A DNA stretch of 60,754 nt from assembly GCA_028286945.1 (NCBI GenBank), contig JAQBQR010000005.1:1-60754 (forward strand), given 5' to 3'. The stretch is from Parcubacteria group bacterium. Its GTDB lineage: Bacteria; Patescibacteriota; Minisyncoccia; Phycocordibacterales; Phycocordibacteraceae. Position 1 is the first letter of the stretch; the number at the start of each line of letters is the position of its first letter. The notes beneath the pieces were generated by a model. The model was given only the letters and a program-made list of their open reading frames with translations, did no database searches and was not told the DNA's origin. The position numbers and the translations under genes were made by a program. Below, piece by piece: positions 41,244 through 45,448 of this stretch.

Positions 41244-42647
41244 TCACGGCGTTTGCTTGGAAAGGAAATATTCGACGAACAGGGAGACGCCCGCTCCCAT
41301 CGAGCCCGGCGCCAGGTGCTCGTCGGGGAACACCTGCACCATACGCGGTGCGATGTCCAGGTGTGCGTAGTTCTCAGCGAACCCAGCCTTCTCCGCAAAG
41401 CGATGAAGGAACCAGGCCGCTGAACTGGCTCCGCCGCTTTTGCCGGACATACAGGCATTGGCGATGTCGGCCTGCGTGCTCCTCAGATAGTGAGCGTAGC
41501 GAGGGCCGAGAGGAAGTTCCCAGAGCGGGTCGAACCCAGCCTCGCCGGCCGTGATCAGATCACGAAGAAGGGTCTTGTTCGTGCTGAACACGCCGCTGTA
41601 CGCATCACCGAGCGCAATGTGCGCCGCGCCGGTCAGCGTGGCGATGTCGATCACCGTGTCCGGGCAATAACGCTTGGCGTACCAAAGCGCATCCGCCAAG
41701 ATGAGCCGGCCTTCAGCGTCGGTGTTGGTCACCTCGACCGAAATGCCTGCCGCCGTTTCGATGATGTCGTCGGGGCGGTAGGAATCGCCGTCCACGCTAT
41801 TTTCGACCGCAGGTATCAAGCCAACGACGTTCACTCGTGCCTTCAGCTGGGAAAGCGCCTGGATGGTCTTGAGGACCGTCACGCCTCCGGATTTGTCCCG
41901 GTGCATGCCAGGCATGTTATCCGACGACTTCATGCTGTTGCCACCGGTGTCGTAGCAGACACCCTTGCCGATGATGACATCCTGTATATCGTTGTCAGGC
42001 TTGCCACTGTATTCGATCACGATGAGTCGAGGCCCGTGCGTACCCCTGGCACCCCGGCCGACGGCGCGGATGAGATTGAGATCTTCACGTTTCAGGCCTT
42101 GATCCTCAAGAACGCGCACGGTGATATTCGCTTCGGACGCTGCCATCTTGTGCGCACACCGTGCGAGCTCTGCCGGCGTTGCAATGTTTGCCGGTGTGTT
42201 CGAAAGCGTCCGCGCCTCGTTGACGCACTGCCCGATGACCGTCCCTTCCTGGACGCCAGCGAGAAACGCTTCATCATCGCCGATGAGATTGATACGCATC
42301 GGCGCCTGACCATTCGTCAGATAGTCGTCGAAGACATAGGCGCCCATCAACGCCCCGCGCGCCATCATCTTGCCAAGCGAACGCTCGCTAAACAGCGTAC
42401 GGTCGAGCATTATAAAGTCGGCGGAATTGAGCTGAATCGCGGGGAGTTTGAAACTCACCGCGGCGCGCACTGCTTGGCGCACCACACGCTCTACCTCCCA
42501 TGGTCCAGCGCCGATATTGACTTGCAGTTCACTGACGGCGATGCCATCAGTGCGAACCAGCGAAGCCGGCAGTTCGCTCCCCATGGTGAGGGAAACGACT
42601 GCCACGCCCTCTGCCGGAGCAGCAGACGTGTTGATCTCGATTTGCAT
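41244..42647 (-). CDS. pepA: Leucyl aminopeptidase (M17 family)
   Basis: NTDAEGRLILADAL signature and VCYDTGG. Strongly G+C-rich third codon positions compared with neighbouring genes. Confidence 0.88.
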   Translation of the reverse strand: MQIEINTSAAPAEGVAVVSLTMGSELPASLVRTDGIAVSELQVNIGAGPWEVERVVRQAVRAAVSFKLPAIQLNSADFIMLDRTLFSERSLGKMMARGALMGAYVFDDYLTNGQAPMRINLIGDDEAFLAGVQEGTVIGQCVNEARTLSNTPANIATPAELARCAHKMAASEANITVRVLEDQGLKREDLNLIRAVGRGARGTHGPRLIVIEYSGKPDNDIQDVIIGKGVCYDTGGNSMKSSDNMPGMHRDKSGGVTVLKTIQALSQLKARVNVVGLIPAVENSVDGDSYRPDDIIETAAGISVEVTNTDAEGRLILADALWYAKRYCPDTVIDIATLTGAAHIALGDAYSGVFSTNKTLLRDLITAGEAGFDPLWELPLGPRYAHYLRSTQADIANACMSGKSGGASSAAWFLHRFAEKAGFAENYAHLDIAPRMVQVFPDEHLAPGSMGAGVSLFVEYFLSKQTP

Positions 42648-42755
42648 GATCTGTACCTTTCTGACGTTAAACGTCAATGAGCATGATTCGGAATGTTCCG
42701 AACCTTCAAACCCTAGTGCGGACTGTACCTTCTTTATGAAGAAGCGTCAAAATAG

Positions 42756-43553: not shown

Positions 43554-43714
43554 TTTTTGAATCTACCCTTTTTAACAAAAAGTGTAAAGTTTTCTCTACA
43601 TAGGAAATGGCGTTTTAGAAGACTTTTGTGCGCACTTTTTACAATCTTTGTTTTGCGTGGTCTAAAAAAATACTCTGTATATGGAGTAACTGAAATTTGA
43701 AATGGGAGGCAGAA

Positions 43715-44689
43715 ATGCGGAAACTAGATGAACTCTATGCAACGTTCGTGCTTCCGGCATTGGACTGCAACTTGAACTGCGCGTACTGCGTAATCAAACA
43801 ACGCAATGAGGCGAGTACATCCGAACTAACTGCCGAAGACTACATTCGATTCTTCAAGGAGATTCTTATTGACCTTAAAATCCGGCGGTTCAGCATCCAA
43901 GGGTACGAACCTCTTCTACCGGAGACGTGGCCGCTTACGAAGGAACTCCTTCAAATCGCAGGAGCATTCTTCTGCGAGTCGTCAGTCATTACGAACGGCA
44001 CATATCTGGCCGAGCATGCACAGGAGCTCGGCAGTTTTCCTGGCCTGGTGGATTCGCTCACGGTTTCCCTTGATGGCGACCGTGCGGAGGTTCACGACAA
44101 GCTGCGCAGAACGACGGGATGCTTTGACGCAGCGCTGGGTGGTCTACGCGCTGTCTCGAGGGAATTCAGAGGAATACTTATGGTGAACTCTGTGCTCTTT
44201 CCTGGAAAGACTGACTATCTGGCACGTATGCCGGAACTTCTTAGTCAGGTGGGGGTACGCGAATGGGCTATCTCTCCGTATATACACGTGGGCAAGAAAA
44301 CTAAAGTACCGAACCAAGTACAGATGCGGGAAGATCTTCTATACCTGACAGGGAAAGCCAGCATTTACGGAATCAAGGTCTATCTTTCCGACGAGCTTCG
44401 TCGCATGGATGGTACTGATCTCTACAAAGACTTCTATGTGCGAGGGCTCGGCGTGGACGAAGGAATCTTCCGGCTTTCACCTGACGGTTCCTGTTCGCGA
44501 GGCCAGGAGATACTGACCACTTCGAAGACTTCGCCAATGTGGGATCGCACAGAAGCCCCCGCAGCATTCTTGAGGCGTATCTTCGCAGAAAAGGATTGGG
44601 ATATGCAGCGGCGAAATGTATTTGCCCGAACGATCCGCCGATGGCACGCTCACTCGCAGTTTCGTCAATATTGGAAAGGAGGTGATTAG
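43715..44689 (+). CDS. Radical SAM enzyme (PqqE/AlbA/anSME-like core, no Cys-rich SPASM tail)
   Basis: CNLNCAYC (CxxxCxxC), IQGYEPLL and VSLDGDRAEVHDKLRRTTGCFDAALGGLRAV. gggagg lies 5 nt upstream of ATG 43715. Only one Cys in the last ~150 aa. Confidence 0.8.
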   Translation: MRKLDELYATFVLPALDCNLNCAYCVIKQRNEASTSELTAEDYIRFFKEILIDLKIRRFSIQGYEPLLPETWPLTKELLQIAGAFFCESSVITNGTYLAEHAQELGSFPGLVDSLTVSLDGDRAEVHDKLRRTTGCFDAALGGLRAVSREFRGILMVNSVLFPGKTDYLARMPELLSQVGVREWAISPYIHVGKKTKVPNQVQMREDLLYLTGKASIYGIKVYLSDELRRMDGTDLYKDFYVRGLGVDEGIFRLSPDGSCSRGQEILTTSKTSPMWDRTEAPAAFLRRIFAEKDWDMQRRNVFARTIRRWHAHSQFRQYWKGGD

Positions 44690-44690
44690 T

Positions 44691-44780
44691 ATGGGTGCGC
44701 TCTATGCCGGAGGTCTCGCACGCAAGAGAAGCTGGAAACAGTTTTTGCGTCGAGCCTTTCGGTTCTTCAAGGCGCAATAG
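44691..44780 (+). CDS. Small cationic peptide 1 (putative rSAM substrate/precursor), 29 aa
   Basis: MGALYAGGLARKRSWKQFLRRAFRFFKAQ. aaaggagg lies 8 nt upstream. The ATG starts 1 nt after the rSAM stop. Absent from the supplied ORF track, which lists nothing shorter than 60 aa. Confidence 0.6.
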   Translation: MGALYAGGLARKRSWKQFLRRAFRFFKAQ

Positions 44781-44813
44781 TATTCACACTTGGCATTAGA
44801 AAGGAGTATCAAC

Positions 44814-44903
44814 GTGGTTGCAGGATACTCAGGACGGCTGAAAAGTCGCCCGAGCCTGGGTTCGTTCGTCCGCAGAGTCTTCCGGTTCTTTCGGGAGCTC
44901 TAG
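44814..44903 (+). CDS. Small cationic peptide 2 (paralogue), 29 aa, GTG start
   Basis: MVAGYSGRLKSRPSLGSFVRRVFRFFREL. aaaggag lies 7 nt upstream. Same length as peptide 1 and shares the AxYxGxL...F[LV]RRxFRFF motif. Confidence 0.55.
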   Translation: MVAGYSGRLKSRPSLGSFVRRVFRFFREL

Positions 44904-44933
44904 GCGAATCATTCAAGAGAGGAGGTGGTCTCA

Positions 44934-45011
44934 ATTAGTGCGATCTACAGCGGTGAACTGGTGAGCCGGTCGACCTTTGTTCGATCCTTCGCCGGTTCGC
45001 CCGCCTTATGA
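44934..45011 (+). CDS. Third, divergent copy of the peptide gene (ATT or upstream GTG start; possibly decaying)
   Basis: (I)SAIYSGELVSRSTFVRSFAGSPAL. gaggagg lies 8 nt upstream of ATT 44934, and an in-frame GTG is at 44925. Indels relative to copies 1 and 2 disrupt the FRFF tail. Confidence 0.35.
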   Translation: MSAIYSGELVSRSTFVRSFAGSPAL

Positions 45012-45084
45012 GGTCGTTATAACTAACGACTAACATGATGACTGTGTCATCCGGGCCTGGTGCAGCCTGGGAACAGAATGCACC

Positions 45085-45113
45085 AACGCCCTCCTAGGAG
45101 GGCGTTTTTATTT
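45085..45113 (+). terminator. Intrinsic terminator closing the rSAM-peptide unit
   Basis: Hairpin aacgccctcc-tagg-agggcgtt followed by TTTTATTT. Confidence 0.7.
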
Positions 45114-45196
45114 GTTTCAAACGCACTCTCATGAATTCATCATCTAGTGACTGATATATTTTCAACATACAAGCTAATAAAAATTACCTTCAATTT

Positions 45197-45448
45197 ATGT
45201 CAATTATTCTCTGGATCGTGCTCGGCGCTATTGCAGGCTGGATTGCCTCGATGATTATGCACACCAATAATCAGCAGGGGCTTCTACTCGACATCGTGGT
45301 GGGTATCGTAGGGGCGTTGATCGGAGGCTTCGTTATGAATGCTCTCGGCCAGGGAGGCGTAAGTGGCTTTAATCTCTACAGTTTGGTTGTGGCGATTCTA
45401 GGTGCGGTAATATTGCTCGCGATTGTGAAGCTCGCACGTCGCGCGTAG
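45197..45448 (+). CDS. GlsB/YeaQ/YmgE (transglycosylase-associated) family membrane protein
   Basis: 83 aa. ILWIVLGAIAGWIASMIM...LDIVVGIVGALIGGFV is characteristic. Confidence 0.8.
   Translation: MSIILWIVLGAIAGWIASMIMHTNNQQGLLLDIVVGIVGALIGGFVMNALGQGGVSGFNLYSLVVAILGAVILLAIVKLARRA

Follow-up and report, generated by a model that had tools for sequence, protein, structure and literature searches.

Three open reading frames (ORFs) of about 29 codons follow one another behind a radical S-adenosylmethionine (rSAM) gene in contig JAQBQR010000005.1 of a Parcubacteria group bacterium (assembly GCA_028286945.1), and they raise the question of whether they are genes and, if they are, whether their peptides are substrates of the enzyme. 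The whole stretch of 60,754 nucleotides that was analysed is called the window below. An earlier reading of this DNA, made from its letters without database searches (the sequence-only reading), had taken the unit for a cassette of the kind that makes peptides synthesised by ribosomes and modified after translation (RiPPs), of a class that it did not recognise. In our analysis, the mini-ORF observation is confirmed, and the locus is a cassette of regulator, enzyme and tandem mini-peptide genes. The proposal of an unrecognised RiPP-like class also held up, as no curated family was matched and the ORFs proved to be linked and conserved. We regard it as probable that the locus represents a new family of regulator-controlled, rSAM-modified (RiPP-like) peptide cassettes specific to the candidate phyla radiation (CPR)/Patescibacteria, in which enzyme and peptides are paired as enzyme and substrate.

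The arrangement described by the sequence-only reading was reproduced in the sequence (Table 1). The rSAM gene (324 aa) is followed by three mini-ORFs, P1, P2 and P3, at a spacing of about 120 bp. The ATG of P1 lies 1 nt beyond the rSAM stop codon, all three starts fall where they had been placed, and a single terminator with a 9-bp stem and a T-tract was found at the predicted position. Each unit is preceded by a Shine-Dalgarno sequence (SD) at the claimed distance of 7-8 nt: GGAGG 8 nt before P1, AAAGGAG 7 nt before P2 and GGAGG 8 nt before the ATT of P3. P1 and P2 are equal in length, carry charges at the two ends of the expected range of about +6 to +8, and contain no Cys. The sole ORF of at least 60 aa over the peptide region is antisense (44373-44777), as had been noted from the ORF track. 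Neither the P1 nor the P2 sequence occurs, letter for letter, in a collection of 15 billion predicted proteins, and the two have therefore never been called as genes.

For comparison we used a set of 70 rSAM homologues and 83 loci from genomes and metagenomes, with more contigs reached through exact protein look-up; the breadth of the peptide family described here is that of the fetched loci. The gene of every close relative of the enzyme (50-61% identity) is directly followed by one to three ORFs of 28-31 codons, and the named close relatives are all Patescibacteria or Paceibacterota. Downstream peptides occur in nine CPR loci (the window, L001, L002, L024, L025, L026/27/60, L028, L090/91 and L096), and MVAGYAGRLSRKERLGSFLRRALRFIRTL, MTVVVSGTLKPKGFRAVALRVLRFFRTL, MAAVFGGLFSRSGVKRSWRRIARFVREFV and MGALYAGEKSRYNPESFGSRVRRTMRLIFGR are examples from relatives, so that the same short ORFs are present in same-clade loci. 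A hidden Markov model (HMM) of the family finds the peptides at E values of 1e-7 to 1e-15 (8e-14 for P1 and 2e-13 for P2), and its next-best match in the window and the loci, about 650 kb in all, has an E value of 0.36. An SD of the AAGGAGGT type stands 7-9 nt upstream of each downstream copy. Among ten gap-free copies of 29 codons, the proportion of synonymous differences (pS) exceeded that of nonsynonymous differences (pN) in 45 of 45 pairs, with pS at 0.38-0.99, often saturated, and pN at 0.11-0.44. P1 compared with its orthologues gave pS of 0.52-0.84 and pN of 0.26-0.44. The ratio of nonsynonymous to synonymous substitution rates (dN/dS) for P2 was 0.2-0.3 against L001a, L001b and L024a, pairs in which dS is unsaturated, and it was 0.08 and 0.23 for the likely orthologous pairs L001c/L024a and L001b/L024b. 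This codon-level conservation indicates that the mini-ORFs are real genes under purifying selection.

Conservation along the peptides falls into two parts. At the N-terminus there is a motif M-x-x-x-[Y/V/F/I]-[A/S/G]-G, in which M1 is invariant or nearly so and Gly7 nearly invariant. At the C-terminus there is an Arg-rich helix in which R21 and R24 vary little or not at all. Amphipathic tails are seen across the family (hydrophobic moment, muH, 0.6-1.0; 0.68 in P1 and 0.85 in P2), net charge runs from +4 to +11, and the peptides of most relatives contain no Cys. Conservation in these two parts fits a modification site joined to a recognition helix. The shared motifs drawn earlier from the window peptides stood in part: the N-terminal Gly and the C-terminal Arg are conserved, but A-x-Y is not general, as Val, Phe or Ile replaces Tyr at position 5 in relatives. 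More distant CPR relatives of the enzyme (44-53% identity) have instead a divergent small ORF upstream of the rSAM gene, with an SD in most cases; these are L084/85 (MAFGITNAKKEEGTNLSFLRRIARFFRVLFR, called by a gene caller), L086 (MAVVIAGLARGKRRLRRRARRAYKAR), L097 and L003. A profile of concatenated peptide pairs searched against a database of 5.8 billion proteins gave 240 word candidates and none at E<=10, owing to the size of the database. Viral contigs yielded only generic rSAM matches, at 22-35% identity, and no member of the family.

The third copy in the window requires separate treatment. The family HMM finds the N-half of P3 in the ATT frame (ISAIYSGELVSR…) and its C-half in the -1 frame (written …DLCSILRRFARLMRSL with stop, …VDLCSILRRFARLMRSL or …SILRRFARLMRSL with stop), which ends at the stop codon TAA at 45020-45022. 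A DNA alignment of the three repeat units contains a single 1-nt gap, located in unit 3, after which the stop codons align, and the repaired product has exactly 29 aa, the same as P1 and P2. Across 44680-45120, a Logan assembly made independently agrees with the window at 100% identity, indicating that the frameshift is no assembler-specific error. Because the HMM halves lie in two frames, the unit alignment needs only one gap and the Logan assembly is identical, these comparisons identify P3 as a recently frameshifted paralogue that was inactivated by a 1-nt deletion. Its non-canonical start had been seen correctly by the sequence-only reading, but the indels ascribed to it come down to this one nucleotide. 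ATT is also found at the start position of the third copy of L024, and both may be decaying or weakly expressed copies.

The enzyme beside these peptides is of a minimal kind. It carries a single cluster motif, C18-x3-C22-x2-C25 (CNLNCAYC), and matches PF04055 and PF13353, the generic Radical_SAM core, in Pfam, with no SPASM or Fer4 auxiliary-cluster domain at E<=1. No NCBIfam family reaches its cut-off. The best match is BlsE (TIGR04466), whose cut-off is 400 bits and whose score here is 59.1; next come MoaA and many maturases of the SPASM type, at 30-55 bits. An AlphaFold2 model (mean predicted local distance difference test, pLDDT, 89) has no neighbour in the PDB above a template-modelling (TM) score of 0.62, and a PDB profile search matched the core barrel alone of BlsE, SkfB, NifB and anSME. 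The enzyme thus falls into no curated cofactor, tRNA or small-molecule family, the TM score with BlsE being 0.57. Its Cys residues outside the cluster are 87, 136 and 260, of which C260 alone is conserved, in 28 of 32 sequences (alignment A1), in agreement with the claim that a Cys-rich SPASM/twitch C-terminus is lacking. C260 sits in a conserved C-terminal beta-hairpin, RLSPDGSC(260)S, after which comes a basic C-terminal helix (residues ~302-321). An N-terminal RiPP recognition element (RRE) is absent, because the cluster motif begins at residue 18. The family is rare, as a set of 1.84 billion representatives yields 180 clusters at E<=1e-30.

Besides the peptides, seven of the loci share an RNA element, which takes the general form of CCGGG, 3-4 nt, a 4-6-bp stem and a loop (g/a)CCUGGGAACAGAA. 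It was counted 8 times in these 7 loci, in every case between or behind peptide genes, and the copy in the window stands immediately before the terminator. Compensatory changes affect 4 of 5 stem pairs (GUGCA/UGCAC, UGCGC/GCGCA, AGCAC/GUGCU, ACGC/GCGU), and the covariation score was reached by none of 500 shuffles; the 3' untranslated region (45010-45120) folds with z = -4.6. A covariance model found no further copy in 191 kb, and the rest of the window has none. No Rfam family matched; the best, sau-6072, scored 24.8 bits against a gathering score of 50 and has only the two-hairpin shape in common. The loop is better conserved than the adjacent coding sequence, implying sequence-specific recognition, and we propose the hairpin as a new candidate cis-regulatory motif. 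Two other readings of these letters were rejected. A pseudoknot between CCGGG and CCUGG of the loop would join segments that are almost invariant, with no covariation and with two variants that break pairs. A sigma-54 promoter read from TGGGAAC…GC fails on inspection, as its GG-to-GC spacing is inconsistent among instances and the flanks covary as a stem.

Upstream of the operon lies the divergently transcribed gene of a TrmB-like protein, in the place and on the strand that the sequence-only reading had given. Residues 8-57 match TrmB (PF01978, 27.0 bits against a cut-off of 25.6) and MarR_2 in Pfam. The best full-length Foldseek matches of its AlphaFold2 model (pLDDT 87) are TrmBL2 and TrmB (E 1e-10 to 6e-8), and the presence of both the winged helix-turn-helix (wHTH) and the C-terminal domain places it in the TrmB family. 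The protein is identical to NCBI protein JWL75_100. When all ORFs of 16 CPR loci were clustered, only two families proved to be conserved, the rSAM gene (16 of 16) and the divergent regulator of ~265 aa (15 of 16), and the flanks varied. Distant relatives of the regulator (38-39% identity; L098 3501-4319 and L100 3501-4313) are found in CPR genomes beside an HU-family gene and with no rSAM gene, indicating that the regulator family is broader than the cassette. A role of this protein as a trans-acting RRE was considered and dropped: its full-length fold is that of TrmB/TrmBL2 and not PqqD-like, and this fold together with the rSAM-free relatives leads us to read it as a regulator rather than as a peptide-binding RRE. 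An alignment of the intergenic region from the window, L001, L024, L025 and L090 contains two conserved palindromic sites (Table 1), which we propose as candidate operators. Site 2 shares letters with a -35-like TTTACA, and a conserved TCTAAAAA follows downstream of it at 43661-43668; the sequence suggests a promoter/operator role.

According to the reading we favour, the TrmB-family protein would control the divergent promoter, and the operon would encode a minimal rSAM enzyme with a single [4Fe-4S] cluster together with one to three translationally coupled, paralogous, precursor-like peptides of 28-31 residues. The enzyme would most likely dock the peptides by their Arg-rich amphipathic C-terminal helix, and the N-terminal motif [Y/V/F/I]-[A/S/G]-Gly, which is conserved, would lose H to the 5'-deoxyadenosyl radical. 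The outcome may be redox-neutral, with L-to-D epimerisation using a Cys as H-donor as the reaction that would fit best; alternatively, the Gly motif may undergo a backbone or cross-linking reaction of a new type. A redox-neutral reaction appears most parsimonious because there is no auxiliary cluster and there is one conserved extra Cys (C260, in the hairpin beside the barrel). Within the cassette reading, we would assign roughly a third of the weight to epimerisation and about as much to new chemistry at the Gly motif. What results would be small peptides of cationic and amphipathic character that act on membranes or serve host interaction. We infer the enzyme-substrate relation, the site, the chemistry and the biological role from sequence, and the role of the peptides as substrates from linkage: in the loci examined, peptide ORFs of this family are confined to the neighbourhood of this rSAM clade, and the 1-nt gap couples the translation of rSAM and P1. 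A hint of docking comes from co-variation. The C-terminal helix of the enzyme is present in 9 of 9 loci with downstream '…RRxxRF' peptides, and none of the five tail-less rSAMs (P0022, P0029, P0030, L003 and L029) has such peptides; this remains a hint and no more, because the loci are not phylogenetically independent.

Several observations weigh against this pairing. No RRE, protease or exporter is conserved in the cassette loci, the peptides have no obvious division into leader and core, and the closest characterised relative of the enzyme, BlsE, acts on a small molecule. As Tyr5 is not conserved, an aromatic cross-link is excluded as the general reaction. Four of 32 members lack the putative H-donor C260; P0022 is one of them, and its locus keeps a peptide. 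Relatives of the enzyme at 33-40% identity (Alphaproteobacteria and Burkholderiales; L004-L023 and L092-L095) are without the peptides. In these proteobacterial loci (e.g. L093 5001-10948 and L095 5001-9115) the rSAM gene is preceded by variable large ORFs without Pfam domains and followed by SBP_bac_5, BPD_transp_1 and ABC_tran genes of an Opp/Dpp-like importer, and none of the small ORFs around them, including those in an 887-bp gene-free gap in L093, resembles the peptide family. Being peptide-free and beside ATP-binding cassette (ABC) importers, they imply that the wider family need not modify peptides. The proteobacterial members are probably a distinct functional subfamily, and on this comparison pairing with the peptides belongs to the CPR clade rather than to the whole rSAM family. 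A further step, that the cassette founds a new RiPP class with chemistry not described before at the N-terminal hydrophobic-small-Gly motif, distinguished by a minimal rSAM with neither RRE nor auxiliary cluster, recognition of a C-terminal Arg-rich 'follower' helix, leaderless 29-mers and an RNA hairpin that would govern how the peptide genes are processed or expressed (perhaps bound by the Arg-rich peptides themselves), we put forward tentatively and with more doubt than belief.

The same evidence has to be set against other explanations. The peptides could be genuine and remain unmodified, as leaderless cationic bacteriocin- or toxin-like products or as Arg-rich RNA-binding autoregulators, with the rSAM enzyme working on a small molecule. 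Such a division of labour would account for the missing leader, RRE, protease and exporter, for the small-molecule decarboxylase BlsE as best-matching characterised enzyme and for the peptide-free proteobacterial relatives. The Arg-rich, amphipathic composition of the peptides, next to whose genes a hairpin with a conserved loop stands in 7 loci, also suits it, and is reminiscent of pairs of an arginine-rich motif and a hairpin, lambda N and boxB being an example. However, the strict N-terminal hydrophobic-small-Gly motif is unneeded for an amphipathic or RNA-binding helix, and the restriction of the peptide family to the vicinity of this rSAM clade, the tight translational coupling and the co-variation of peptide type with the C-terminal helix of the enzyme speak against it as well. 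Nor do the 16 CPR loci conserve any further biosynthetic gene pointing to a small-molecule pathway. We consider this explanation unlikely, with a chance that is small and still worth reckoning with. A more radical one holds that the short ORFs are untranslated and form a repeated non-coding 3' region or a small-RNA array of the rSAM transcript. It draws on the facts that they are under the usual gene-calling length, that P1 and P2 were never annotated, that the 3' region is highly structured and carries a conserved hairpin, and that P3 is frameshifted. It is very improbable in our judgement, given that more than 20 copies preserve an open frame of 28-31 codons with synonymous sites near saturation (pS up to 0.99 against pN <=0.44), that a strong SD stands at the correct spacing on every copy, and that amino-acid conservation is periodic and amphipathic.

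Chemistry of the glycyl-radical type would, by contrast, retain the enzyme-peptide relation and change its outcome. The enzyme would be activase-like and take the C-alpha H of Gly7, and the radical would serve cleavage, amidation, cross-linking or a 'spare part' function. In its favour, Gly7 hardly varies, position -1 holds a small residue and position -2 a beta-branched or aromatic one, and the motif [V/Y/F]-[S/A/G]-G, which stands ~22 residues before the C-terminus, is similar to RV[SCA]G[YF], which lies ~25 residues from the C-terminus of pyruvate formate-lyase (PFL) and GrcA; the single cluster is also as in activases. The variants MTVVVSGTL… and MTISVSGTLKRRRGLSDVVQQIVRF… resemble RVSGYAVRFNSLTKEQQQDV of PFL, as a lead rather than a test. 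Opposed to this are the database results, as no PFL-AE family is among the 25 best NCBIfam matches listed, all of SPASM, MoaA or BlsE type, the peptides have no Pfam Gly_radical (PF01228) match at E<=1, and no glycyl-radical enzyme gene is linked in the CPR loci. To our knowledge, moreover, a peptide of 29 residues is unable to shield a stable glycyl radical. An activase paired with a Gly_radical domain was rejected on these searches as a resemblance of motif only, and we judge the wider idea improbable.

Placing the proposed rSAM-peptide cassette among known systems reveals likenesses in kind. Proteusin epimerases have the rSAM cluster only; both epimerase families need a critical Cys and work leader-independently, and their products perturb membranes (PMC8326336). 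The cassette resembles the epipeptide (YydF with EpeE = YydG) and proteusin (PoyD/OspD) systems in that an rSAM enzyme would act on a short ribosomal peptide; its enzyme, too, has a single cluster and a conserved extra Cys, C260, and its peptides are cationic and amphipathic. There is, however, no significant sequence relationship. EpeE is a weak fold match (rank 49, TM 0.43), and neither an EpeE nor a PoyD family is among the NCBIfam matches listed, so that the sequences do not place the enzyme with the epimerases. The cassette enzyme is without the auxiliary cluster that EpeE has and without the C-terminal RRE of proteusin epimerases, and the cassette lacks an NHLP/32-aa leader, a protease and ABC exporter genes; its peptides have 29 aa, and epimerisation here is a candidate only. 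With the SPASM/twitch maturases (SkfB, CteB/AlbA, SuiB, PqqE, MftC) the enzyme shares the same broad rSAM branch, as the NCBIfam scores of 30-55 bits and fold matches to SkfB, SuiB and CteB (TM 0.52-0.61) suggest, and an enzyme beside short precursor genes is likewise common to both. It differs in having no SPASM/twitch Cys motifs, auxiliary cluster or N-terminal RRE, and the peptides differ in the absence of Cys from P1 and P2 and of a conserved Trp/Lys, Glu/Tyr or C-terminal GVY motif.

BlsE, the cytosylglucuronate decarboxylase of the blasticidin S pathway, is the best Foldseek match (E 3e-11, TM 0.57, 23% identity) and matches by profile at E 5.8e-22 over rSAM core positions 29-200. Only the core barrel is matched, however; the C-terminal third is unrelated, no nucleoside-antibiotic genes lie nearby, and membership in TIGR04466 was rejected on the score given above. 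Leaderless multi-peptide class II bacteriocins such as aureocin A70 and enterocin L50 consist of tandem cationic amphipathic peptides of ~30 residues in variable copy number, and the cassette is like them in each of these respects. Those bacteriocins, by contrast, are unmodified peptides accompanied by ABC exporters and immunity genes of their own, and they have no rSAM partner.

Other known classes were rejected. A sactipeptide or ranthipeptide was excluded for the window, as the sequence-only reading had argued, since P1 and P2 have no Cys as thioether donor and the enzyme has no SPASM/twitch. That reading was also right in setting aside the Tyr-Gly splicease motif. The window peptides have Y-A-G and Y-S-G rather than the X-Tyr-Gly of spliceotides (PlpX-type tyramine excision), Val replaces Tyr in L026, and there is neither SPASM nor a conserved accessory gene. 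A RiPP recognition element (PqqD-like wHTH), whether fused or separate, was not found, the sole neighbouring wHTH having the TrmB/TrmBL2 fold. A prokaryotic viperin or defence system was rejected as well: the pVip match of 44 bits in PADLOC reflects the generic rSAM core, and NF038283 scored 42.5 bits against a cut-off of 180. A full-text literature search, whose coverage leaves out most subscription journals, found no description of this cassette.

The neighbours on either side vary among loci. The G+C-rich M17 aminopeptidase gene reported beyond the TrmB-like gene is indeed there, with a G+C of about 0.60 against about 0.45-0.53 nearby, which may reflect horizontal acquisition. It lies outside the cassette, because it is not conserved in the other loci; the TrmB-family regulator lies inside. 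Directly past the terminator, at 45197-45448, there is a gene for an 83-aa GlsB/YeaQ/YmgE-type 'transglycosylase-associated' small membrane protein (PF04226, E 2e-14), which is not conserved with the cassette. Elsewhere in the window, an identical 34-nt stretch, tcggagcgggctgatatcccgcTTGGCAACAGAA, occurs twice on the minus strand, ~570 bp apart, at about 19664 and about 20232; it turned up as background matches of a motif scan.

Table 1. Features of the cassette and its surroundings in the window, and positions of the RNA element in other loci
Feature	Position	Strand	Details
Radical-SAM (rSAM) enzyme gene	43715-44689	+	ATG 43715, stop TAG 44687-44689
P1 peptide gene	44691-44780	+	ATG start, 29 aa, MGALYAGGLARKRSWKQFLRRAFRFFKAQ, net charge +8
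P2 peptide gene	44814-44903	+	GTG start, 29 aa, MVAGYSGRLKSRPSLGSFVRRVFRFFREL, net charge +6
P3, third paralogue	44934-45022	+	ATT start; ORF in its present state ends at 45011
Conserved RNA element	45051-45084	+	CCGGG, 3-4 nt, hairpin stem 45059-45064 with 45079-45084, loop gCCUGGGAACAGAA
Intrinsic terminator	45085-45113	+	Stem 45085-45106, 9 bp, GC-rich, then T-tract; operon end
TrmB-family transcription regulator gene, 265 aa	42756-43553	-	N-terminal winged HTH and TrmB-type C-terminal domain
Conserved palindromic site 1 (candidate operator)	43583-43600		TGTAAAGTTTTyTnnACA (TGTAAAG…ACA); invariant columns in five-locus alignment
Conserved palindromic site 2 (candidate operator)	43636-43651		TTTTACAAnnnTTTGT (TTTTACAA…TTTGT); conserved in five-locus alignment
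M17 leucyl aminopeptidase gene	41244-42677	-	PF00883, E 3e-97
RNA element, L001	5346-5398		
RNA element, L024	5323-5375		
RNA element, L025	5016-5068		
RNA element, L026	3084-3134		
RNA element, L028	4977-5029 and 5215-5267		
RNA element, L090	5339-5391		

The pairing of an rSAM enzyme with peptides is known in kind; what appears new here is the enzyme family, the peptide family, the regulator as partner and the RNA motif, and hardly any such systems are known from this lineage. As a candidate peptide-modifying rSAM the enzyme is unusually minimal (290-324 aa, one cluster, no RRE), and with candidate substrates of ~29 residues the whole system is small enough for synthesis and reconstitution. 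Invisible to standard annotation, the peptide genes also exemplify what ORF-length cut-offs miss. The genomes of CPR/Patescibacteria are tiny, most of these bacteria are episymbionts that have not been cultured, and specialised metabolism is considered sparse among them. If the cassette is truly a new class, it would be among the few specialised-metabolite-like systems native to CPR bacteria, and a conserved, autonomously regulated cassette of this kind would point to peptide-based interaction with hosts or competitors.

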